Origin: Escherichia coli
GTDB lineage: Bacteria; Pseudomonadota; Gammaproteobacteria; Enterobacterales; Enterobacteriaceae
NCBI RefSeq assembly: GCF_036507355.1
Contig: NZ_AP027877.1
Direction: 5' to 3' (one strand)
Length of the DNA: 64,000 nt
This document shows, one piece after another, positions 6,727 to 16,815 of this stretch; the first letter of the stretch is position 1; every line of letters starts with the position of its first letter. Below the pieces are notes generated by a model. The model was given only the letters and a program-made list of their open reading frames with translations, was not told where the DNA came from and did no database searches. The translations under genes were made by a program, and so were the position numbers.

Positions 6727-6999
6727 ATGGATCTTGATGACATTATCAACAGCATGACGCCTGAGGTATACCAGCGTTTGTCGACCGCCGTTGAACTGGG
6801 GAAATGGCCTGATGGCGTTGCGTTGACCGAGGAACAAAAAGAGAACTGCCTGCAACTGGTGATGCTGTGGCAAGCCCGCAATAATACCGAAGCACAGCAT
6901 ATGACAATTGACACAAATGGTCAGATGGTCATGAAGAGCAAACAGCAGTTAAAAGAAGATTTTGGTATCTCAGCAAAGCCGATTGCCATGTTTAAGTAA
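6727..6999 (+). CDS. yeaC: DUF1315 family protein YeaC
   Basis: 90 aa from ATG 6727 (MDLDDIINSMTPEVYQRL); the ORF-track upstream extension would overlap the msrB 3' end. Confidence 0.85.
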   Translation: MDLDDIINSMTPEVYQRLSTAVELGKWPDGVALTEEQKENCLQLVMLWQARNNTEAQHMTIDTNGQMVMKSKQQLKEDFGISAKPIAMFK

Positions 7000-7258
7000 G
7001 TGGTTCATCCCCTTTTTGCCGCGGCTATGAAGGGGATAGCCAACAATGACCCCACGACTCATCTCAATTATCTCGCCATGACCTGGCTAAGTCCCAGTCC
7101 GATCTCTTGCCGTCGCGTTCACACCTGAATGACTTCTCCTGAACTTAAGTCTCAGACCTATTTGGCCGGTAATCCCTCTCGAATTTGCTCTTTTTGCGCC
7201 CCGCCTTCCATCAACCTGTAACAGACCCAGCCATTTTCTGCGTAATTGTGATCTGAGT

Positions 7259-7290
7259 TGTAAAACGCAGATCATTATCTGTGTTTTACA
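7259..7290. repeat. 14 bp inverted repeat (hairpin or operator-like) upstream of ydjL
   Basis: TGTAAAACGCAGAT-CATT-ATCTGTGTTTTACA, one mismatch, about 80 bp upstream of the ydjL start. Confidence 0.5.
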
Positions 7291-7368
7291 GATTTAATGT
7301 TGATCTCAAAAATCATGTGGGTAAGTATGATGGCCATCTAAGCAAAACTAAACACAGAGGATGACGCA

Positions 7369-8445
7369 ATGAAAGCACTGGCTCGGTTTGGCAAGGCCTT
7401 TGGCGGCTACAAGATGATTGATGTCCCACAACCCATGTGTGGCCCGGAAGATGTAATGATTGAAATTAAAGCCGCGGCAATCTGCGGCGCAGACATGAAG
7501 CACTACAATGTCGATAGCGGTTCTGATGAGTTTAACTCTATCCGCGGCCATGAGTTCGCAGGTTGTATTGCGCAGGTTGGTGAAAAAGTCAAAGACTGGA
7601 AAGTGGGGCAACGCGTCGTATCGGATAACAGCGGTCACGTTTGCGGCGTTTGTCCGGCCTGTGAACAAGGTGATTTTCTGTGTTGTACAGAAAAAGTAAA
7701 CCTTGGTCTGGATAATAATACCTGGGGCGGTGGTTTTTCCAAATATTGTCTGGTTCCTGGTGAAATTCTCAAAATTCATCGTCATGCGTTGTGGGAAATC
7801 CCTGATGGTGTTGATTATGAGGACGCAGCCGTACTTGACCCTATCTGTAATGCCTACAAATCCATCGCGCAGCAATCGAAATTCCTCCCTGGTCAGGATG
7901 TAGTCGTCATCGGTACTGGCCCACTTGGGCTGTTCTCCGTACAAATGGCGCGGATTATGGGGGCGGTAAATATCGTCGTCGTTGGTCTACAAGAAGATGT
8001 GGCGGTCCGCTTCCCGGTTGCAAAAGAACTGGGTGCGACGGCAGTAGTAAATGGTTCTACCGAAGATGTGGTGGCGCGCTGCCAGCAAATTTGTGGCAAA
8101 GACAATCTGGGACTGGTGATTGAATGCTCCGGTGCCAATATCGCATTGAAACAAGCCATCGAAATGCTCCGCCCGAACGGGGAAGTGGTACGCGTTGGAA
8201 TGGGCTTCAAACCTCTTGATTTCTCGATTAATGACATTACCGCCTGGAACAAAAGCATCATTGGGCATATGGCCTATGACTCAACCTCATGGCGTAACGC
8301 TATCAGGCTATTAGCCAGCGGCGTTATCAAAGTCAAACCGATGATCACGCATCGTATCGGCCTGTCGCAATGGCGCGAAGGGTTTGATGCGATGGTCGAT
8401 AAAACCGCAATCAAAGTGATCATGACTTACGACTTTGATGAATAA
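7369..8445 (+). CDS. ydjL: Zn-dependent medium-chain dehydrogenase YdjL
   Basis: 358 aa; GHEFAG and Cys-rich structural-zinc motif (CGVCPACEQGDFLCC), Rossmann GTGPLG. Confidence 0.9.
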   Translation: MKALARFGKAFGGYKMIDVPQPMCGPEDVMIEIKAAAICGADMKHYNVDSGSDEFNSIRGHEFAGCIAQVGEKVKDWKVGQRVVSDNSGHVCGVCPACEQGDFLCCTEKVNLGLDNNTWGGGFSKYCLVPGEILKIHRHALWEIPDGVDYEDAAVLDPICNAYKSIAQQSKFLPGQDVVVIGTGPLGLFSVQMARIMGAVNIVVVGLQEDVAVRFPVAKELGATAVVNGSTEDVVARCQQICGKDNLGLVIECSGANIALKQAIEMLRPNGEVVRVGMGFKPLDFSINDITAWNKSIIGHMAYDSTSWRNAIRLLASGVIKVKPMITHRIGLSQWREGFDAMVDKTAIKVIMTYDFDE

Positions 8446-8471
8446 CAACTTTCCTGAAGGAACGTTATCGC

Positions 8472-9851
8472 ATGGAACAGATAACAAAACCGCATTGTGG
8501 TGCACGGCTGGATCGCTTACCGGATTGCCGCTGGCATTCGTCAATGTTTGCCATCGTCGCGTTTGGCTTGCTTGTCTGCTGGAGTAATGCCGTTGGTGGC
8601 TTGATCCTCGCGCAGCTGAAAGCGTTGGGCTGGACAGATAATTCCACCACAGCCACATTCTCAGCAATCACGACCGCCGGAATGTTTCTCGGTGCGCTGG
8701 TGGGCGGCATCATTGGCGACAAAACCGGTCGCAGAAATGCGTTCATCCTCTATGAGGCCATTCATATTGCCTCGATGGTTGTCGGTGCTTTCTCACCGAA
8801 TATGGATTTCCTTATTGCCTGCCGTTTTGTGATGGGAGTTGGGCTGGGAGCTTTACTGGTTACGCTGTTTGCTGGTTTCACCGAATATATGCCCGGTAGA
8901 AATCGTGGAACGTGGTCAAGTCGGGTTTCCTTTATTGGCAACTGGTCATATCCGCTCTGTTCATTGATAGCGATGGGACTCACGCCGCTGATTAGTGCAG
9001 AGTGGAACTGGCGGGTACAACTGCTTATCCCTGCAATATTGTCGCTTATCGCTACGGCGCTGGCCTGGCGCTACTTTCCTGAATCCCCGCGCTGGCTGGA
9101 ATCGCGCGGACGGTATCAGGAAGCCGAGAAAGTCATGCGGAGTATAGAAGAAGGCGTCATACACCAGACGGGTAAACCTTTGCCGCCCGTGGTTATTGCT
9201 GATGACGGTAAAACGCCACAAGCGGTGCCGTATTCAGCCTTACTGACAGGAGTATTACTGAAACGCGTGATATTAGGCTCTTGTGTGCTGATTGCCATGA
9301 ACGTTGTGCAGTACACACTAATTAACTGGTTGCCAACGATATTCATGACCCAGGGGATTAATTTAAAAGACTCGATTGTTTTAAATACCATGAGTATGTT
9401 TGGCGCGCCATTTGGCATTTTTATTGCCATGCTGGTGATGGATAAAATTCCGCGTAAAACAATGGGTGTGGGGCTATTAATCCTGATTGCGGTGCTCGGA
9501 TATATCTATTCACTGCAAACCAGTATGTTGCTCATAACGTTGATTGGTTTCTTCCTGATTACTTTTGTCTATATGTACGTTTGCTATGCCTCGGCAGTGT
9601 ATGTCCCTGAGATCTGGCCGACAGAGGCCAAACTCCGTGGCTCCGGTCTGGCGAATGCGGTAGGGCGAATCAGTGGTATTGCCGCACCTTATGCCGTTGC
9701 AGTGCTGCTCAGTAGTTATGGCGTTACGGGAGTCTTTATTCTTCTGGGGGCAGTTTCAATTATTGTCGCAATTGCTATCGCCACCATTGGAATCGAAACC
9801 AAAGGTGTCTCCGTTGAAAGTTTAAGTATTGATGCAGTAGCCAATAAATAA
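8472..9851 (+). CDS. ydjK: MFS sugar-type transporter YdjK
   Basis: 459 aa, multiple hydrophobic helices, MFS signature GDKTGRR. Confidence 0.9.
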   Translation: MEQITKPHCGARLDRLPDCRWHSSMFAIVAFGLLVCWSNAVGGLILAQLKALGWTDNSTTATFSAITTAGMFLGALVGGIIGDKTGRRNAFILYEAIHIASMVVGAFSPNMDFLIACRFVMGVGLGALLVTLFAGFTEYMPGRNRGTWSSRVSFIGNWSYPLCSLIAMGLTPLISAEWNWRVQLLIPAILSLIATALAWRYFPESPRWLESRGRYQEAEKVMRSIEEGVIHQTGKPLPPVVIADDGKTPQAVPYSALLTGVLLKRVILGSCVLIAMNVVQYTLINWLPTIFMTQGINLKDSIVLNTMSMFGAPFGIFIAMLVMDKIPRKTMGVGLLILIAVLGYIYSLQTSMLLITLIGFFLITFVYMYVCYASAVYVPEIWPTEAKLRGSGLANAVGRISGIAAPYAVAVLLSSYGVTGVFILLGAVSIIVAIAIATIGIETKGVSVESLSIDAVANK

Positions 9852-9867
9852 TACGGGTGGATTCAAA

Positions 9868-10911
9868 ATGAAAAATTCAAAAGCAATATTGCAGGTGCCG
9901 GGCACAATGAAAATTATTTCAGCAGAAATACCAGTGCCTAAAGAAGATGAAGTTTTGATTAAAGTAGAATATGTCGGTATTTGTGGTTCAGATGTACATG
10001 GTTTTGAATCAGGTCCGTTTATTCCGCCTAAAGACCCAAATCAAGAAATTGGCCTGGGTCATGAATGCGCCGGGACGGTTGTGGCTGTGGGAAGCCGCGT
10101 GCGCAAATTTAAACCGGGGGATCGGGTAAATATCGAACCTGGCGTTCCTTGCGGTCACTGTCGTTACTGTCTGGAAGGCAAATATAACATCTGCCCGGAC
10201 GTTGATTTTATGGCGACACAACCCAACTACCGCGGCGCATTAACGCACTATCTGTGTCATCCGGAGAGCTTTACTTACAAACTGCCCGACAATATGGACA
10301 CGATGGAAGGGGCGCTGGTGGAGCCTGCCGCAGTCGGGATGCATGCCGCGATGCTGGCAGATGTTAAACCGGGTAAGAAGATAATTATTCTGGGAGCAGG
10401 TTGTATTGGTTTGATGACGTTGCAAGCGTGCAAATGCCTGGGAGCAACGGAAATTGCCGTCGTTGATGTGCTGGAAAAACGTCTGGCAATGGCGGAACAG
10501 CTTGGTGCGACAGTGGTTATTAACGGCGCAAAAGAAGACACTATTGCACGCTGTCAGCAATTTACCGAAGACATGGGCGCAGATATTGTTTTCGAAACAG
10601 CGGGTTCTGCGGTCACCGTTAAACAGGCACCTTATCTGGTAATGCGCGGCGGTAAAATTATGATTGTTGGTACTGTACCCGGCGATTCGGCAATCAATTT
10701 CCTCAAAATAAATCGCGAAGTTACTATCCAGACGGTATTCCGCTACGCCAATCGTTATCCGGTCACGATTGAAGCTATTTCTTCAGGGCGATTCGATGTG
10801 AAATCGATGGTGACGCATATTTACGATTATCGGGATGTACAACAGGCATTTGAAGAGTCAGTTAACAATAAACGCGACATTATTAAAGGCGTTATTAAGA
10901 TTAGCGATTAA
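9868..10911 (+). CDS. ydjJ: Zn-dependent dehydrogenase YdjJ
   Basis: 347 aa; GHECAG zinc-ligand motif, CGHCRYC structural-zinc motif, GAGCIG Rossmann motif. Confidence 0.9.
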   Translation: MKNSKAILQVPGTMKIISAEIPVPKEDEVLIKVEYVGICGSDVHGFESGPFIPPKDPNQEIGLGHECAGTVVAVGSRVRKFKPGDRVNIEPGVPCGHCRYCLEGKYNICPDVDFMATQPNYRGALTHYLCHPESFTYKLPDNMDTMEGALVEPAAVGMHAAMLADVKPGKKIIILGAGCIGLMTLQACKCLGATEIAVVDVLEKRLAMAEQLGATVVINGAKEDTIARCQQFTEDMGADIVFETAGSAVTVKQAPYLVMRGGKIMIVGTVPGDSAINFLKINREVTIQTVFRYANRYPVTIEAISSGRFDVKSMVTHIYDYRDVQQAFEESVNNKRDIIKGVIKISD

Positions 10912-10931
10912 TTAATACGGGAGAACAGAAC

Positions 10932-11768
10932 ATGCTCGCAGATATCAGATATTGGGAAAACGATGCCACAAATAAACGTTATGCTATTGCCCATTTTAAT
11001 GTATGGAATGCAGAAATGTTGATGGGCGTTATCGACGCAGCCGAAGAAGCGAAATCACCGGTTATTATTTCTTTTGGCACAGGTTTTGTCGGCAACACCT
11101 CATTTGAAGATTTCTCTCACATGATGGTATCAATGGCACAAAAAGCAACGGTGCCGGTAATAACTCATTGGGATCATGGTCGGAGTATGGAGATTATTCA
11201 TAACGCCTGGACTCATGGTATGAATTCATTAATGCGTGATGCTTCCGCATTTGATTTCGAAGAAAATATTCGTTTAACCAAAGAGGCTGTTGATTTCTTC
11301 CATCCGCTGGGTATTCCGGTAGAGGCGGAATTAGGGCATGTCGGTAATGAAACCGTTTATGAGGAAGCTCTGGCGGGCTATCACTATACCGATCCTGACC
11401 AGGCGGCTGAATTTGTTGAACGTACGGGCTGTGACTCATTGGCTGTCGCCATCGGCAACCAGCATGGGGTTTATACGTCAGAGCCACAATTGAACTTTGA
11501 GGTCGTCAAACGCGTACGCGATGCCGTGTCTGTTCCGCTGGTTTTGCATGGCGCATCGGGGATCAGTGATGCCGACATTAAAACTGCAATTTCGTTGGGT
11601 ATCGCGAAAATCAACATCCATACGGAGCTCTGTCAGGCCGCAATGGTCGCAGTGAAAGAAAACCAGGATCAGCCTTTCCTGCATTTAGAACGTGAAGTAC
11701 GTAAAGCTGTAAAAGAACGGGCATTGGAAAAAATTAAACTGTTCGGTTCTGATGGCAAAGCGGAATAA
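10932..11768 (+). CDS. ydjI: Class II (metal-dependent) ketose-bisphosphate aldolase YdjI
   Basis: 278 aa; similarity to the tagatose/fructose-bisphosphate aldolase class II family recognised. Confidence 0.88.
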   Translation: MLADIRYWENDATNKRYAIAHFNVWNAEMLMGVIDAAEEAKSPVIISFGTGFVGNTSFEDFSHMMVSMAQKATVPVITHWDHGRSMEIIHNAWTHGMNSLMRDASAFDFEENIRLTKEAVDFFHPLGIPVEAELGHVGNETVYEEALAGYHYTDPDQAAEFVERTGCDSLAVAIGNQHGVYTSEPQLNFEVVKRVRDAVSVPLVLHGASGISDADIKTAISLGIAKINIHTELCQAAMVAVKENQDQPFLHLEREVRKAVKERALEKIKLFGSDGKAE

Positions 11769-11772
11769 TGAT

Positions 11773-12720
11773 ATGGATAATCTCGACGTTATTTGTATAG
11801 GTGCCGCTATTGTTGATATTCCATTGCAACCGGTCAGTAAAAATATCTTTGATGTGGATTCTTATCCTCTTGAAAGAATCGCAATGACCACCGGGGGTGA
11901 TGCAATAAATGAAGCAACAATTATTTCTCGTCTGGGCCATCGTACAGCATTAATGAGCCGTATTGGTAAAGATGCCGCAGGGCAGTTTATTCTCGACCAT
12001 TGCCGCAAAGAGAATATTGATATTCAAAGCCTGAAGCAGGACGTCAACATAGATACCTCTATTAATGTTGGACTGGTGACGGAGGATGGCGAGCGGACGT
12101 TTGTCACAAACCGTAACGGCAGTCTGTGGAAATTGAATATTGACGATGTTGATTTTGCGCGGTTTTCCCAGGCGAAATTATTATCACTGGCCAGTATTTT
12201 CAACAGTCCACTATTGGATGGTAAAGCGCTAACAGAAATTTTTACGCAAGCTAAAGCCCGGCAGATGATTATCTGTGCCGATATGATCAAACCGCGGTTG
12301 AATGAAACGCTGGATGATATTTGCGAAGCATTGAGTTATGTCGATTATCTGTTTCCTAATTATGCCGAGGCAAAATTACTCACCGGGAAAGAGACACTGG
12401 ATGAAATTGCTGACTGCTTTCTTGCGTGCGGCGTAAAAACGGTGGTGATTAAAACGGGTAAAGACGGCTGCTTTATCAAGCGTGGTGACATGACGATGAA
12501 GGTGCCGGCGGTCGCAGGAATAACCGCCATCGACACCATTGGCGCGGGCGATAACTTTGCTTCAGGTTTTATTGCGGCACTGTTAGAAGGCAAAAATCTG
12601 CGTGAATGCGCACGCTTTGCCAATGCAACGGCGGCTATCTCGGTTCTAAGCGTCGGTGCCACCACCGGCGTAAAAAACAGAAAGCTGGTCGAACAATTGC
12701 TGGAAGAATACGAAGGATAA
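11773..12720 (+). CDS. ydjH: PfkB-family sugar kinase YdjH
   Basis: 315 aa from ATG 11773 (MDNLDVICIG); ribokinase/PfkB family with GAGD motif near the C-terminus. Confidence 0.88.
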   Translation: MDNLDVICIGAAIVDIPLQPVSKNIFDVDSYPLERIAMTTGGDAINEATIISRLGHRTALMSRIGKDAAGQFILDHCRKENIDIQSLKQDVNIDTSINVGLVTEDGERTFVTNRNGSLWKLNIDDVDFARFSQAKLLSLASIFNSPLLDGKALTEIFTQAKARQMIICADMIKPRLNETLDDICEALSYVDYLFPNYAEAKLLTGKETLDEIADCFLACGVKTVVIKTGKDGCFIKRGDMTMKVPAVAGITAIDTIGAGDNFASGFIAALLEGKNLRECARFANATAAISVLSVGATTGVKNRKLVEQLLEEYEG

Positions 12721-12729
12721 TGAAGGCAA

Positions 12730-13710
12730 ATGAAAAAAATACCTTTAGGCACAACGGATATTACGCTTTCGCGAATGGGGTTGGGGACATGGGCCATTGG
12801 CGGCGGTCCTGCATGGAATGGCGATCTCGATCGGCAAATATGTATTGATACGATTCTTGAAGCCCATCGTTGCGGCATTAATCTGATTGATACTGCACCA
12901 GGATATAACTTTGGCAATAGTGAAGTTATCGTCGGTCAGGCGTTAAAAAAACTGCCCCGTGAACAGGTTGTAGTAGAAACCAAATGCGGCATTGTCTGGG
13001 AACGAAAAGGAAGTTTATTCAACAAAGTTGGCGATCGGCAGTTGTATAAAAACCTTTCCCCGGAATCTATCCGCGAAGAGGTAGAAGCCAGCTTGCAACG
13101 TCTGGGTATTGATTACATCGATATCTACATGACGCACTGGCAGTCGGTGCCGCCATTTTTTACGCCGATCGCTGAAACTGTCACAGTGCTTAATGAGTTA
13201 AAGGCTGAAGGGAAAATTCGCGCTATAGGCGCTGCTAACGTCGATGCTGACCATATCCGCGAGTATCTGCAATATGGTGAACTGGATATTATTCAGGCGA
13301 AATACAGTATCCTCGACCGGGCAATGGAAAACGAACTGCTGCCGCTATGTCGTGATAATGGCATTGTGGTTCAGGTTTATTCCCCGCTAGAGCAGGGATT
13401 GTTGACCGGCACCATCACTCGTGATTACGTTCCGGGCGGCGCTCGGGCAAATAAAGTCTGGTTCCAGCGTGAAAACATGCTGAAAGTGATTGATATGCTT
13501 GAACAGTGGCAGCCACTTTGTGCTCGTTATCAGTGCACAATTCCCACTCTGGCACTGGCGTGGATATTAAAACAGAGTGATTTAATCTCCATTCTTAGTG
13601 GGGCTACTGCACCGGAACAGGTACGCGAAAATGTCGCGGCACTGAATATCAACTTATCGGATGCAGACGCAACATTGATGAGGGAAATGGCAGAGGCCCT
13701 GGAGCGTTAA
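12730..13710 (+). CDS. ydjG: Aldo-keto reductase YdjG
   Basis: 326 aa; aldo-keto reductase family sequence recognised. Confidence 0.9.
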   Translation: MKKIPLGTTDITLSRMGLGTWAIGGGPAWNGDLDRQICIDTILEAHRCGINLIDTAPGYNFGNSEVIVGQALKKLPREQVVVETKCGIVWERKGSLFNKVGDRQLYKNLSPESIREEVEASLQRLGIDYIDIYMTHWQSVPPFFTPIAETVTVLNELKAEGKIRAIGAANVDADHIREYLQYGELDIIQAKYSILDRAMENELLPLCRDNGIVVQVYSPLEQGLLTGTITRDYVPGGARANKVWFQRENMLKVIDMLEQWQPLCARYQCTIPTLALAWILKQSDLISILSGATAPEQVRENVAALNINLSDADATLMREMAEALER

Positions 13711-13846
13711 ATACTCAACACGATTCACCTCTGTTTCTGTGAAAACTGTGATGAAAATCTGTGATTCAAACAGGTTATTTTGAAAGTAAACATCGGTTAT
13801 GCGATAATCGCGCTAATGTGATGTAAAAAGATACAGGGGTGTAATC

Positions 13847-14605
13847 GTGGCGGCAAAAGACAGGATTCAGGCAATTAAGCAAATGGTTGCCAACGATAAA
13901 AAGGTGACAGTCTCAAATTTGAGTGGGATTTTTCAGGTAACCGAAGAAACCATTCGCCGCGATCTTGAGAAGCTGGAAGATGAAGGCTTTTTGACCAGAA
14001 CCTATGGTGGTGCTGTTTTAAATACAGCGATGTTGACGGAGAATATCCATTTTTATAAGCGCGCTTCATCGTTTTATGAAGAGAAGCAGCTTATTGCACG
14101 CAAGGCACTACCCTTTATCGACAATAAAACCACCATGGCAGCCGATTCCAGTAGTACCGTAATGGAATTGCTCAAATTGTTACAGGACCGTAGTGACCTG
14201 ACGTTGCTAACCAACTCGGCGGAAGCGATTCATGTTCTGGCTCAGTCAGAAATTAAAGTCGTTTCAACGGGTGGGGAACTAAACAAAAATACACTTTCAC
14301 TGCAAGGAAGAATTACTAAAGAGATCATCAGCCGCTACCATGTCGATATCATGGTAATGAGTTGTAAAGGTCTTGATATTAACAGCGGCGCGCTGGACTC
14401 TAATGAAGCGGAAGCTGAAATCAAAAAGACAATGATCCGTCAGGCGACAGAAGTTGCGTTATTGGTTGATCACTCTAAGTTTGATCGCAAAGCTTTTGTC
14501 CAGTTAGCTGACTTTAGTCATATTAATTACATAATAACTGATAAATCACCGGGTGCAGAGTGGATAGCATTTTGCAAAGACAATAATATCCAGCTGGTGT
14601 GGTAA
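13847..14605 (+). CDS. ydjF: DeoR-family transcriptional regulator YdjF
   Basis: 252 aa; N-terminal helix-turn-helix (VSNLSGIFQVTEETIRRDLEKLE) and DeoR C-terminal sugar-phosphate sensor domain. Confidence 0.9.
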   Translation: MAAKDRIQAIKQMVANDKKVTVSNLSGIFQVTEETIRRDLEKLEDEGFLTRTYGGAVLNTAMLTENIHFYKRASSFYEEKQLIARKALPFIDNKTTMAADSSSTVMELLKLLQDRSDLTLLTNSAEAIHVLAQSEIKVVSTGGELNKNTLSLQGRITKEIISRYHVDIMVMSCKGLDINSGALDSNEAEAEIKKTMIRQATEVALLVDHSKFDRKAFVQLADFSHINYIITDKSPGAEWIAFCKDNNIQLVW

Positions 14606-14722
14606 TTTAAGCACACGTTGTCAATATTATTTGTTCCTGCGCCTGGAAATAAAATGATGATAAAGATGCGGCAAGTGAATTTGCCGCAATTGCTACCTTT
14701 TTTAGCAAATCCGAGGCACCCA

Positions 14723-16081
14723 ATGGAACAATATGATCAAATTGGCGCAAGACTGGACCGCTTGCCTTTGGCCCGGTTTCATTATCGTATATTTGGTATT
14801 ATAAGCTTTAGTCTGTTATTAACAGGGTTTTTGAGTTACTCCGGTAATGTCGTCTTAGCAAAGCTGGTAAGCAATGGATGGTCAAATAATTTCCTCAATG
14901 CCGCCTTTACCTCGGCATTAATGTTTAGTTATTTCATCGGCTCTCTTACCGGTGGGTTCATCGGTGATTACTTTGGGCGGCGCAGGGCGTTTCGCATAAA
15001 TCTTCTCATCGTCGGTATTGCTGCAACAGGGGCCGCTTTTGTCCCTGATATGTACTGGCTCATCTTCTTTCGCTTCCTGATGGGAACAGGAATGGGGACG
15101 CTGATTATGGTTGGCTATGCCTCATTTACGGAGTTTACCCCCGCGACGGTGCGTGGAAAATGGTCCGCGCGGCTCTCATTTGTTGGTAACTGGTCGCCCA
15201 TGCTGTCTGCGGCGATAGGCGTGGTGGTTATCGCTTTTTTTAGTTGGCGGATAATGTTTCTGCTGGGTGGTATTGGCATACTGTTAGCCTGGTTTCTCTC
15301 AGGTAAATACTTTATCGAGTCGCCACGATGGCTGGCAGGGAAAGGGCAAATCGCAGGTGCAGAATGCCAACTTCGTGAAGTAGAGCAGCAAATTGAAAGA
15401 GAGAAGAGTATTCGTTTACCCCCGCTTACTTCGTATCAGAGCAACAGCAAAGTTAAAGTAATCAAGGGTACTTTCTGGCTCCTGTTTAAAGGTGAAATGT
15501 TACGACGTACATTAGTCGCGATTACTGTTTTAATTGCAATGAACATTTCGCTTTATACCATCACCGTATGGATACCGACCATATTTGTTAACTCCGGCAT
15601 TGATGTCGATAAATCAATATTAATGACCGCTGTTATTATGATTGGCGCTCCGGTAGGAATATTTATTGCGGCATTAATTATTGATCATTTTCCTCGTCGG
15701 TTATTTGGCTCCACCTTACTTATTATTATTGCCGTGTTAGGCTATATCTATTCAATTCAGACTACAGAGTGGGCGATTTTAATCTATGGCCTGGTGATGA
15801 TCTTCTTTTTATACATGTATGTTTGCTTCGCGTCGGCGGTTTATATCCCGGAGCTTTGGCCAACGCATTTACGCCTGCGCGGTTCGGGTTTCGTTAATGC
15901 CGTCGGACGGATCGTCGCAGTCTTCACGCCCTATGGCGTTGCGGCATTATTAACACATTATGGGTCGATCACGGTGTTTATGGTGCTTGGTGTCATGTTA
16001 GTGCTCTGTGCGCTGGTTCTCTCTATTTTTGGCATCGAAACGCGGAAGGTGTCGCTGGAAGAGATTTCTGAGGTGAACTAA
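14723..16081 (+). CDS. ydjE: MFS transporter YdjE
   Basis: 452 aa from ATG 14723 (MEQYDQIGARLDRL), paralogous to ydjK; the ORF-track upstream extension has no support. Confidence 0.88.
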   Translation: MEQYDQIGARLDRLPLARFHYRIFGIISFSLLLTGFLSYSGNVVLAKLVSNGWSNNFLNAAFTSALMFSYFIGSLTGGFIGDYFGRRRAFRINLLIVGIAATGAAFVPDMYWLIFFRFLMGTGMGTLIMVGYASFTEFTPATVRGKWSARLSFVGNWSPMLSAAIGVVVIAFFSWRIMFLLGGIGILLAWFLSGKYFIESPRWLAGKGQIAGAECQLREVEQQIEREKSIRLPPLTSYQSNSKVKVIKGTFWLLFKGEMLRRTLVAITVLIAMNISLYTITVWIPTIFVNSGIDVDKSILMTAVIMIGAPVGIFIAALIIDHFPRRLFGSTLLIIIAVLGYIYSIQTTEWAILIYGLVMIFFLYMYVCFASAVYIPELWPTHLRLRGSGFVNAVGRIVAVFTPYGVAALLTHYGSITVFMVLGVMLVLCALVLSIFGIETRKVSLEEISEVN

Positions 16082-16132
16082 ATCTTTCGTTGATGGCGTC
16101 CATTACCAGATGTACTACCGACGTGTTTTATC

Positions 16133-16165
16133 TGGCCTACAATGCCAGTACAGAATTGTAGGCCA
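16133..16165. repeat. Perfect 11 bp inverted repeat between convergent ydjE and pncA (probable bidirectional terminator or REP-like unit)
   Basis: TGGCCTACAAT-N11-ATTGTAGGCCA; the GGCCTAC motif is typical of REP ends. Confidence 0.55.
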
Positions 16166-16173
16166 GCGTAAAA

Positions 16174-16815
16174 TTACCCCTGCGTCTCTTCCCAGTCTGC
16201 CAGCGTATATAGCGTTGCCCCAGCTGCTGACATTTCCATAAACGCGTGCGCACTGTCCTGTGGCTGGATATTCACCCCACGACAGCCATCGGTAATCACG
16301 TTTACCTTATAACCTAACTGTAACGCGTCCAGCACGGTAAACTTCACGCAATAGTCAGTAGCCAGGCCCATAACGATCAATTCATCGATTTCATGATCGC
16401 GTAACCAGTCATCAAGCGAGGTTTTCTGCCGACGGCCGTTATCAAAAAAGGCACTGTAACTGTCAACTAAAGGATTTTCGCCTTTATGGAACACCGCTGC
16501 GATCGCTTTTTGGTTCAGTAACGGATGTAATTGTGCGCCTTCACTGTTCTGCACACAGTGATCTGGCCAGAAGGTTTGTGGCAAACCGTCGAGTTGACCT
16601 GGCGTATAAGGCTCTACACAGTGCTGACTGGCAAAACTGCCGTGATTCGCTGGGTGCCAGTCCTGACTGGCGATAACCGCTTCACCGCGCGACAGGCACC
16701 AGTCAATCAGGCGGTTAGCGACATCCACCGTACTGTCACCCTCCGGCACGGCGAGCGCGCCACCAGCACAGAAATCATTTTGTAAATCGACCAGTAACAG
16801 GGCGCGAGGGGGCAT
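16174..16815 (-). CDS. pncA: Nicotinamidase/pyrazinamidase PncA
   Basis: 213 aa from ATG 16815 (MPPRALLLVDLQNDFCAGG), isochorismatase-fold nicotinamidase. Confidence 0.93.
   Translation of the reverse strand: MPPRALLLVDLQNDFCAGGALAVPEGDSTVDVANRLIDWCLSRGEAVIASQDWHPANHGSFASQHCVEPYTPGQLDGLPQTFWPDHCVQNSEGAQLHPLLNQKAIAAVFHKGENPLVDSYSAFFDNGRRQKTSLDDWLRDHEIDELIVMGLATDYCVKFTVLDALQLGYKVNVITDGCRGVNIQPQDSAHAFMEMSAAGATLYTLADWEETQG

Follow-up and report, generated by a model that had tools for sequence, protein, structure and literature searches.

The ydjLKJIHGFE cluster of Escherichia coli: an optional, probably catabolic gene module with predicted YdjF operators

Which nutrient is served by the ydj genes of Escherichia coli, and how is their expression controlled? 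The question is raised by the eight genes ydjLKJIHGFE at positions 7369–16081 of a 64,000-nt stretch of E. coli DNA (NZ_AP027877.1), which was analysed as a whole and is called the window here. The ydj cluster is one of the few multi-enzyme catabolic clusters of E. coli K-12 without a known substrate, although the structures of three of its proteins have been solved and two proteins characterised in vitro, and it is induced specifically in the gut. We consider it likely that the genes constitute an optional, horizontally acquired and gut-induced catabolic island for an acidic sugar or polyol, whose main operon is controlled by YdjF and dependent on CRP. The cluster itself is already catalogued and partly characterised; what we have found beyond the literature consulted is the boundaries and allele frequencies of the island, its spread across phyla together with a promoter and an operator-like box, the lineage-specific occurrence of ydjE, and, as predictions, the boxes themselves, including a copy inside ydjL.

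The ydj island in E. coli and its spread across phyla

We compared 9.5 kb around the locus with complete E. coli genomes; 5425 of the 5426 genomes gave matches, and the region showed 100% coverage and 98.9% identity to MG1655 (99.4% to the best match). The plus strand of 7369–16081 carries eight open reading frames, each with an intact frame, which RefSeq names ydjL, K, J, I, H, G, F and E, with yeaC upstream and a convergent pncA downstream. In gene order, in the yeaC–pncA context and in near-identity to the reference, this is the E. coli ydj cluster (b1769–b1776 of K-12; Huddleston & Raushel 2019, as cited in PMC9602453 and PMC11194214); the same eight genes stand in the same order, without difference in gene content. 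An earlier interpretation made from the DNA letters alone (the sequence-only reading) had proposed eight same-strand ydj genes here, as the open reading frames and the RefSeq annotation confirm, and every protein family that it named is borne out by Pfam. The paralogy that it assumed between the transporters YdjK and YdjE is also real, with 43% identity (E 9e-128).

Most of the ydj segment is present in 4260 of the 5426 genomes (78.5%), and 1089 (20.1%) have an empty site consisting of yeaC, 94 unrelated bp and pncA. Because homology to the window stops at 6997 and restarts at 16117 in the ydj-less genomes, the island can be delimited as a block of 9,119 bp (6998–16116, plus strand) between yeaC and the pncA terminator region. 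The 94-bp filler (6844–6937 of locus L082) had no match in the window or in the related loci. These presence/absence counts agree with the published prevalence of ydj, namely 97% of phylogroup A and 30% of B1 (PMC9602453). The G+C content of the island is 46.4%, against 50.1% in the remaining window. Since Citrobacter, Klebsiella, Raoultella and Yokenella hold the cluster in the same msrB ... pncA-ansA-sppA context, its absence in E. coli is most simply explained by secondary loss. Positive and negative isolates differ by one clean 9.1-kb indel, and this should be useful for growth comparison.

Decay of the island was seen in individual strains: an IS3-family element splits ydjE in E. coli cattle strain 111 (locus L084, 7909–10580), and a human stool isolate from Mali has IS1 copies together with a ydjK-to-ydjG deletion and a disrupted ydjE (locus L085, 1973–7343). 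Between the convergent ydjE and pncA, an inverted repeat with a 12-bp stem (CTGGCCTACAAT ... ATTGTAGGCCAG, window 16123–16166) has no T-run after it on either strand; it belongs to the pncA side, because it is not part of the island and ydj-less genomes still have it.

To see how far the cluster extends beyond E. coli, neighbourhoods were compared for 80 loci obtained by a YdjI search with one genome per species. The order L-K-J-I-H-G-F recurs in about 80 species of at least four phyla: it was found in Enterobacterales, Lachnospiraceae, Clostridium, Veillonella, Megamonas, Anaerococcus, Erysipelotrichaceae, Atopobiaceae and other Actinobacteria, and Synergistaceae, and in rearranged form in Gilliamella. 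Nearly every one of the 80 loci has the genes L, J, I, H and G; F is present in most of them and K in about two thirds. Thus a neighbourhood comparison, which the sequence-only reading had recommended, shows ydjLKJIHGF kept as a unit even across phyla and places ydjE outside the conserved core; ydjE follows ydjF in every Enterobacterales locus recovered (21–22 of the 80), including those of the distant Budvicia and Enterobacillus, and nowhere else. Because the order recurs over phyla and because E. coli keeps or loses the genes as a block, we take them to be a functional unit.

Identity to the E. coli proteins is high over these distances. In Lachnospiraceae it amounts to 85–87% for YdjI, 82–86% for YdjL, 63–80% for YdjJ, 66–70% for YdjH, 58–67% for YdjG, 52–55% for YdjK and 51–54% for YdjF; in the cross-phylum loci YdjK, present in most of them, has 50–75% identity, and YdjF outside Enterobacterales 40–62%. 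In a neighbour-joining tree of concatenated L+J+I+H+G, Enterobacterales form one clade nested among Firmicutes, with Clostridium puniceum, Herbinix, Lachnotalea, Megamonas and Veillonella as its sister; Gilliamella is placed far away, and Actinobacteria stand with Erysipelotrichaceae. The high identity over distant phyla and this tree therefore indicate that the module has moved horizontally several times, and contamination is not the explanation, because several hosts are isolates with megabase-scale contigs. The ydj genes of Budvicia aquatica (locus L019) group inside Enterobacteriaceae, next to Citrobacter, Klebsiella and Yokenella, unlike the expectation from its family, and this placement suggests a further transfer within Enterobacterales.

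Many host species are gut organisms. Since ydj occurs in about four fifths of E. coli and also in many gut anaerobes, Lachnospiraceae and Veillonella among them, the nutrient is probably a common gut compound.

The periphery of the module is variable, and the accessory genes of other phyla (an AlsE-like epimerase, carboxylate-type transporters and a second kinase/aldolase pair) constrain the identity of the substrate. In 29 loci other than those with ydjE, a gene of the sodium:dicarboxylate-symporter family (PF00375, DctA/GltP-like) adjoins ydjF, and in further loci outside Enterobacterales a Liv-type ATP-binding cassette (ABC) system comes after it; YdjE-like genes of the major facilitator superfamily (MFS; 46–52% identity) flank the cluster in C. 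puniceum and Veillonella. Because three unrelated transporter families fill the slot after ydjF, the pathway appears to need a second transport step, and transporter families of the carboxylate type fit an acidic substrate or product. An AlsE-like ketose-phosphate 3-epimerase was observed in 26 Firmicute loci (e.g., L033, 6634–7329), mostly between ydjL and ydjK and in Megamonas after ydjG; it scores 252 bits against a cut-off of 271 for D-allulose-6-phosphate epimerase, the E. coli cluster is without it, and it may widen the range of sugar stereoisomers used by its hosts. The ydjK-less variants often come with genes for a xylose-isomerase-like TIM-barrel protein, for an FGGY kinase and for a class II aldolase of the fuculose-phosphate type, and a Liv-type ABC transporter accompanies these genes downstream of the ydjF homologue (loci L055, L058, L059 and L050). 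The added genes hint at a second isomerise-phosphorylate-cleave round that would act on the first aldehyde product.

Promoters, predicted operator boxes and the proposed role of YdjF

About 110 bp upstream of ydjL are conserved across Enterobacterales, and this segment includes the predicted ydjL promoter (7300–7328, plus strand), which has TTGATC at -35 (7300–7305), a 17-bp spacer and AAGTAT at -10 (7323–7328). The -35 hexamer reads TTGA(C/T)C in Enterobacterales and TTGAC(C/A/T) across phyla, and Firmicutes have a good -10 box at the same spacing; an alternative match to the promoter consensus lies at 7285–7313. The weak -10 box of E. coli would fit dependence on an activator. Upstream of the promoter, TGTGA at 7247–7251 (plus strand) is tentatively regarded as a CRP half-site: TTTGTGATCT at this position is nearly invariant in 22 Enterobacterales, with a poor right half-site. 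A full CRP site was not found at either the ydjL or the ydjF promoter, where only TGTGA half-sites occur. In the literature, ydjLKJIHG is listed as activated by Crp (PMC8085971), and a ydjL promoter fragment was on in the mouse gut and off in culture (PMC6561318).

Candidate operators, predicted from the sequence, sit at the ydjL promoter, at the ydjF promoter and inside ydjL. At the ydjL promoter there is an inverted repeat with 15-bp arms (TTGTAAAACGCAGAT, loop CATT, ATCTGTGTTTTACAG; 7258–7291), whose core CAGAT-N4-ATCTG is conserved across Enterobacterales, and the predicted YdjF operator O-L1 (TCTGTGTTTTACAGA, 7278–7292) ends 7 bp upstream of the -35 hexamer. The pattern TCTKT-N5-AMAGA has two exact matches in the 64-kb window against 0.16 expected, both at ydjL. 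When promoters were aligned on their -35 hexamers, the same box was found to precede TTGAC by 4–7 bp, both in Enterobacterales (ATCTGTGTTTTAMAGAT) and in Lachnospiraceae and Blautia (TCTTTGAAACAAAGA). In 40 of 79 loci the 250 bp upstream of ydjL hold an exact box, where 0.02 would be expected from the rest of the loci; the enrichment is about 25-fold. A further half-box occurs in the spacer between -35 and -10, reading GAAACAAAGA in Lachnospiraceae and TCAAAGAT or TTAAAGAT in Klebsiella; Citrobacter (TCAAAAAT) is like E. coli in this spacer.

The second exact match, box O-L2 (TCTGTGTTGTACAGA, 7677–7691), is a predicted auxiliary operator inside ydjL, at codons 103–108 (FLCCTE) and 399 bp from O-L1. 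In 22 Enterobacterales, codons 102–108 have a synonymous-codon entropy of 0.095, against a mean of 0.62–0.63 (z = -4.7). None of the 346 windows in ydjL has a lower value, nor has any of the roughly 2,570 windows of the eight genes together, the gene starts included. Firmicute ydjL encodes nearly the same peptide at this position with different codons and has no box there.

At ydjF, the best promoter-like site of the region (10/12) is TTGAAA, 17 bp and GATAAT with an upstream TG (13780–13808, plus strand), and the same TTGAAA-17-GATAAT sequence has been identified as a constitutive RpoD (sigma-70) promoter of ydjF by genomic SELEX (systematic evolution of ligands by exponential enrichment) with RNA polymerase (PMC3946193). 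A degenerate palindrome overlapping its -35 hexamer (ATCTGTGATTCAAA, an 8-nt spacer and TTTGAAAGTAAACAT; 13757–13793) is a predicted autoregulatory operator, O-F. Its left arm at 13758–13772 is the only intergenic match to the box pattern with one mismatch, and its right arm contains the -35 of the ydjF promoter. AAATCTGTGATTC at O-F is nearly invariant in Enterobacterales, a weight matrix built from Firmicutes only ranks 13757–13770 sixth of about 128,000 positions in the window, and a two-arm arrangement of this kind, its spacer likewise 8 nt long, is seen in Herbinix. The inverted repeats upstream of Firmicute ydjF, from which that matrix was derived, were not relied on as operators, since a T-run follows each of them. 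For this reason the case for operators is based on the alignment of ydjL promoters and on the intragenic copy.

The spacer between ydjG and ydjF also contains two conserved arms that could act in RNA instead. The 5' arm (ACCTCTGTTTCT, 13727–13738, plus strand) is the complement of the ribosome-binding region of ydjF and also resembles the operator box, and the 3' arm (AGATACAGGGGT, 13829–13840, plus strand) contains the Shine-Dalgarno sequence of ydjF. Because the ydjF promoter identified by SELEX lies between the arms, only transcripts reading through from ydjG would carry both of them; the 5' arm could then block YdjF translation on the read-through transcripts, and those from the ydjF promoter would be translated. 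Such an anti-Shine-Dalgarno device, if true, would shield repressor synthesis from induction of the operon. In its favour, RNAalifold with 16 Enterobacterales gives a 12-bp helix with 96.9% of cells paired, against 45–61% when the partner was slid, the E. coli spacer folds with z = -4.0, ten one-sided changes convert U-A to U-G and are neutral only in the plus-strand RNA, and no terminator-like site was found after ydjG. The covariation is weak, however, with two pairs changed on both sides and three pairs that never vary, the 3' arm is conserved anyway as a ribosome-binding site, an equivalent pairing was not seen in Firmicute spacers, and the 5' arm is operator-like, its reverse complement CACAGAAACAGAGG resembling GAAACACAGAA of Lachnospiraceae. 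We therefore regard the RNA device as possible and on the unlikely side. The two arms at 13727–13738 and 13829–13840 could instead be a pair of DNA operators. Close by, at 13738–13764 of the window, three TGTGA motifs overlap box-like sequences; they may explain why ydjF is listed as a predicted target by CRP genomic SELEX (PMC3105977), a full CRP palindrome not having been found there.

As the reader of these boxes we propose YdjF, which would bind them, autoregulate and control ydjLKJIHG. Besides the boxes themselves, two observations lead to this proposal: no regulator other than YdjF accompanies the cluster from phylum to phylum, and its recognition helix, VTEETIRRDL(E/D)KLE, hardly varies between phyla, being shared by 17 of 19 sequences, with deviations of I to V in Anaerococcus and E to G in Megamonas. 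The possibility that ydjF regulates an unrelated locus, which the sequence-only reading had held against its own proposal, is made less likely by the operator-like box shared by the ydjL and ydjF promoters. Effectors of DeoR-family proteins are typically phosphorylated intermediates of the pathway concerned. In the mechanism that we propose, YdjF would be made from its own constitutive sigma-70 promoter and would bind the 15-bp TCTKT-N5-AMAGA boxes upstream of the ydjL -35, inside ydjL and over its own -35; the bound protein would silence the CRP-dependent ydjLKJIHG, probably by looping the DNA from the promoter to the intragenic box, and would release the operon when a phosphorylated pathway intermediate accumulates, CRP being required for full expression.

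Several points weigh against this mechanism. The TIRRDL helix is a generic signature of the DeoR family, data on DNA binding by YdjF were not found in the literature consulted, where surveys of uncharacterised regulators list YdjF as unstudied, and the clearest Firmicute palindromes upstream of ydjF may be terminators of the upstream operon. A box about 50 bp upstream of the transcription start, whose position is itself predicted for ydjL, is equally typical of an activator, and FucR, a DeoR-family activator, is among the relatives of YdjF (3.8e-40). The box could accordingly be real and YdjF be an activator like FucR, or a different protein could read it; the location just upstream of -35 next to the weak E. 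coli -10 box, with the same layout in two phyla, agrees with this, and a constitutive ydjF combined with an operon that is silent in culture fits equally well an activator awaiting its ligand. On the other side, most characterised members of the DeoR family are repressors, the half-boxes between -35 and -10 in Lachnospiraceae and Klebsiella occupy a position that blocks RNA polymerase, a distant copy inside the first gene is the classic layout of the loop-forming repressors LacI, GalR and DeoR, and no other regulator that travels with the cluster across phyla was found. On balance we judge an activator or another box-reading protein unlikely and prefer repression by YdjF. The predicted operator sequences can be used for YdjF binding assays and effector screens.

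Next to be considered is the number of transcription units and the place of ydjE in them. The sequence-only reading described gaps of 10–27 bp except for 136 bp before ydjF; this description needs correction, because the gaps measured from RefSeq starts, from ydjL to ydjE, are 26, 16, 20, 4, 9, 136 and 117 bp, and the last is a second large gap. The apparent gap of 12 bp between ydjF and ydjE arose because ydjE had been begun at the TTG of the longest open reading frame (14618). We rejected this start: the ATG at 14723 and its GAGG Shine-Dalgarno sequence are conserved in 21 other Enterobacterales loci. The starts of ydjL and ydjF are also conserved between species. Among Enterobacterales the length of the ydjF–ydjE spacer ranges from 118 to 457 bp; the differences are not multiples of three, and an alignment of the spacer as coding sequence fails.

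This spacer contains a conserved stem-loop (TGCGGCAA gtgaat TTGCCGCA; 14667–14688, plus strand), in which 83.6% of cells are paired in 17 Enterobacterales, against 28–54% when slid, and four of the eight pairs have changed on both sides. As a canonical terminator the stem-loop was rejected, since no U-run adjoins it. The whole spacer does not fold unusually well (z = -1.5), a consensus scan found no sigma-70-like site in it, and a search of 6800–16400 against Rfam at E <= 1 returned only a chance match to a miRNA, with no known riboswitch or leader. The separate ydjF promoter, the spacers of 136 and 117 bp and the stem-loop before ydjE speak against a single eight-gene operon, and ydjLKJIHG is treated as one operon in the literature (PMC6561318, PMC8085971). 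The two transcription units suggested by the sequence-only reading are thus supported at the ydjG–ydjF gap, where the SELEX-matched promoter lies, and the 117-bp spacer with its stem-loop had been missed, so that there may be two units or three.

It may be asked whether ydjE belongs to the system functionally at all, or is only a neighbour, a transporter gene placed by chance between ydjF and pncA in Enterobacterales. Its exclusion from the conserved core of other groups, the 117 bp and the stem-loop that separate it from ydjF, the lack of a box in that spacer, and a SELEX peak of a minor sigma factor inside ydjF and pointing at ydjE, which would represent a separate promoter (PMC5493296), are in line with such independence, as are knockout phenotypes reported in rich medium, where the operon is off (PMC9405208). 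Nevertheless ydjE is part of the island and shares its gain or loss, it stands next to ydjF throughout the Enterobacterales loci as a paralogue of YdjK, the Firmicute sister lineages have YdjE-like genes beside the cluster, and other phyla fill the same slot with a different transporter. We therefore give functional independence of ydjE a low probability and continue to treat it as the lineage-specific second transporter of the module.

Proteins, proposed pathway and substrate

Assignments of the proteins were made by comparing Pfam and NCBIfam profile scores with the curated cut-offs and by searching the PDB for the nearest structures; all genes lie on the plus strand. YdjL (7369–8445, 358 aa) is a Zn-dependent medium-chain dehydrogenase, and YdjJ (9868–10911, 347 aa) a Zn-dependent dehydrogenase of the sorbitol-dehydrogenase or ketose-reductase type. 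Both carry ADH_N and ADH_zinc_N, and they are distant paralogues with 28% identity. The nearest solved structure for YdjL is only L-threonine 3-dehydrogenase (2DQ4, 1e-42). YdjJ matches 5VM2 over its full length (E 6e-235), in practice the same protein, and next ketose reductase 1E3J (8e-75) and sorbitol dehydrogenase 1PL6; ketose reductases and sorbitol dehydrogenases interconvert a polyol and a 2-ketose. The best scores of the two dehydrogenases are below the equivalog cut-offs for Tdh (218 vs 380), IolM (197 vs 450), IdnD (176 vs 469) and GatD (168 vs 550), and the IolM scores of YdjL and YdjJ (182–197) are second only to those for threonine dehydrogenase.

YdjI (10932–11768, 278 aa) is a class II (Zn) aldolase dependent on dihydroxyacetone phosphate (DHAP), matching the full length of 6OFU, described as YdjI aldolase (E 6e-187). 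It passes the tests for the class II family (PF01116, 298 bits against a cut-off of 25.5; TIGR00167, 324 against 215.6) and falls below the equivalogs of the FbaA/GatY/KbaY type (TIGR01859, 247 vs 343; TIGR01858, 226 vs 444; NF009375 for KbaY, 186 vs 542), and since it misses the cut-offs of the bisphosphate aldolases it forms a distinct subfamily. YdjH (11773–12720, 315 aa) is a sugar kinase of the PfkB family (PF00294, 248 bits against 25.8) and matches 3H49/3IN1 over its full length (E 2e-205); its scores lie below the kinase equivalogs, of which IolC, the 5-dehydro-2-deoxygluconokinase, is the best (143 vs 300), followed by ribokinase (134 vs 300) and PfkB, the 1-phosphofructokinase (72 vs 292). 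For ydjH, the ATG at 11752 of the longest open reading frame was rejected in favour of 11773, in accordance with the RefSeq annotation and the PDB construct; antisense open reading frames in the region were dismissed as by-products of the coding strand.

YdjG (12730–13710, 326 aa), an NADH-dependent aldo-keto reductase, has YhdN and IolS of the AKR11 family as its nearest structures and passes NF049922 (MethglyxlRedYdjG; 628 bits against a cut-off of 550), a model that was built on YdjG and that names the protein without establishing its physiological role. YdjF (13847–14605, 252 aa) is a DeoR/GlpR-family regulator with the domains HTH_DeoR (PF08220, 62.6 bits) and DeoRC (PF00455, 167.8 bits); the 21 Enterobacterales loci examined keep its GTG start, and its scores fall below every named equivalog cut-off tested (GlpR, AgaR, SrlR, FucR and DeoR). 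YdjK (8472–9851, 459 aa) is the conserved MFS transporter of the core module, and YdjE (14723–16081, 452 aa), with its start set by the conserved ATG and GAGG, is the second MFS transporter. Because YdjL, YdjJ, YdjH, YdjI, YdjK, YdjE and YdjF reach no NCBIfam equivalog cut-off of named function, their substrates cannot be assigned by homology. The best relatives below threshold are IolC for the kinase, IolM for both dehydrogenases after threonine dehydrogenase, and IolS for the reductase, a pattern that points to a possible keto-acid-sugar chemistry like that of the lower inositol pathway.

The logic of oxidation, phosphorylation and cleavage that was suggested in the sequence-only reading fits these families and the PDB matches, and the in vitro biochemistry on higher-carbon ketose acid phosphates that it mentioned is borne out by PMC9602453 and PMC11194214, citing Huddleston & Raushel 2019. 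According to these articles, the substrates preferred by YdjH and YdjI are long-chain monosaccharides that end in a carboxylate, and YdjI either forms octuluronate-1-phosphate out of DHAP plus L-arabinuronate or splits it (PMC9602453, PMC11194214); the preference in vitro is given as C7–C9 non-deoxy 2-ketoses with a carboxylate end (PMC9602453). In the pathway that we propose, YdjK would import the substrate, and YdjJ and/or YdjL, judging from their families, would oxidise a secondary alcohol of a polyol-type precursor to a 2-ketose with a distal carboxylate. YdjH would phosphorylate C1 of this 2-ketose and YdjI would split the ketose-1-phosphate into DHAP and an aldehyde-acid, two steps that others are reported to have shown in vitro. 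The aldehyde product would be reduced or oxidised by the NADH-dependent YdjG and/or by YdjL, and the second transporter, YdjE in Enterobacterales and an SDF-family or ABC system elsewhere, would serve product export or basal uptake.

Against so definite a pathway stand three points. The best in vitro substrate is said in PMC9602453 to have "no natural abundance"; a natural substrate or a growth phenotype of the cluster was not found in the literature, where the physiological substrate is still not firmly established, just as the sequence-only reading had it; and the roles given to YdjL, YdjJ, YdjG, YdjK and YdjE are presumed from family membership only. The sequence predictions suggest concrete experiments and leave the substrate problem unsolved. 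That the cluster is a stress or detoxification module for methylglyoxal, other reactive aldehydes, or acid or osmotic stress, and not a carbon-source pathway, is most improbable: YdjG does pass the equivalog of an NADH-dependent methylglyoxal reductase, ydj genes are over-represented in lactic-acid-resistant E. coli (PMC9602453), and overexpression of ydjK is reported to improve growth at high salt, with methylglyoxal suggested as the gut trigger (PMC6561318), but aldo-keto reductases commonly reduce methylglyoxal as a side activity, the link to acid resistance is confounded by phylogroup, with its 97% in group A and 30% in B1, the detoxification of aldehydes has no use for a kinase with a DHAP-dependent aldolase, for a transporter of the sugar type or for a DeoR regulator, and the seven-gene order is kept across phyla as a pathway unit.

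Returning to the catabolic module, we can tentatively extend the proposal to its history, with a confidence somewhat below an even chance: the module may have passed between Firmicutes and Enterobacterales along with its cis-regulatory logic, Enterobacterales may then have evolved the intragenic, lac-like loop operator, and the Firmicute variants lacking K may run two rounds of phosphorylation and cleavage. If this is true, the two rounds of cleavage would give independent genomic support for the C7–C9 acidic substrates seen in vitro.

Comparison with known catabolic systems

Judged by equivalog scores the cluster is not a member of any named pathway, and the comparison with known systems is therefore one of likeness in parts. 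The galactitol and N-acetylgalactosamine systems (gat/aga) resemble ydj in the Zn-dependent medium-chain dehydrogenase GatD, in the class II aldolases GatY and KbaY, which belong to the Pfam family of YdjI, and in the DeoR-family repressors GatR and AgaR; AgaR is among the best matches of YdjF, and KbaY/AgaY structures are among those of YdjI. They differ in uptake by a phosphotransferase system and in the cleavage of a hexose 1,6-bisphosphate, whereas ydj has MFS uptake and a carboxylate-ended ketose-1-phosphate, and YdjI misses the cut-off for tagatose-bisphosphate aldolase (226 vs 444).

The predicted operators recall the looping systems of lac, gal and deo, in that near-identical palindromes stand at the promoter and 399 bp downstream in the first structural gene; the spacing between lac O1 and O2 is 401 bp. 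The ydj system differs from these in that its operator binding and loop are predictions, YdjF belongs to the DeoR family and not to the LacI family, and the intragenic copy is present only in Enterobacterales.

In chemistry, the closest system to that reported for YdjH and YdjI is the lower myo-inositol pathway (IolC and IolJ, with IolS and IolM). In its IolC-type step a keto-acid sugar is phosphorylated by a PfkB kinase at the hydroxymethyl group adjoining its keto group, and in its IolJ-type step a class II aldolase releases DHAP and an aldehyde-acid, as for YdjI. The ydj proteins score far below the corresponding equivalogs (IolC, 143 vs 300; IolM, 182–197 vs 450), the cluster is without homologues of IolB, IolD, IolE and IolG, and YdjH and YdjI prefer C7–C9 non-deoxy sugars.

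The yih cluster for sulfoquinovose (the sulfo-Embden-Meyerhof-Parnas pathway) is alike in its plan: a PfkB kinase and an aldolase yield DHAP and an acidic aldehyde, an NADH-dependent reductase acts on the latter, the product is exported, and there are two transporters and a DeoR-family regulator. It differs in having a class I aldolase and an isomerase as the entry step instead of dehydrogenases, and the proteins are not orthologous. That YdjE might be an exporter, as the likeness to yih would suggest, is only an analogy. The yihUTS genes appear in the same set of newly Crp-activated genes as ydjLKJIHG (PMC8085971). Taken together, the IolC/IolJ steps and the yih cluster appear to be the closest analogues of the ydj module in logic.

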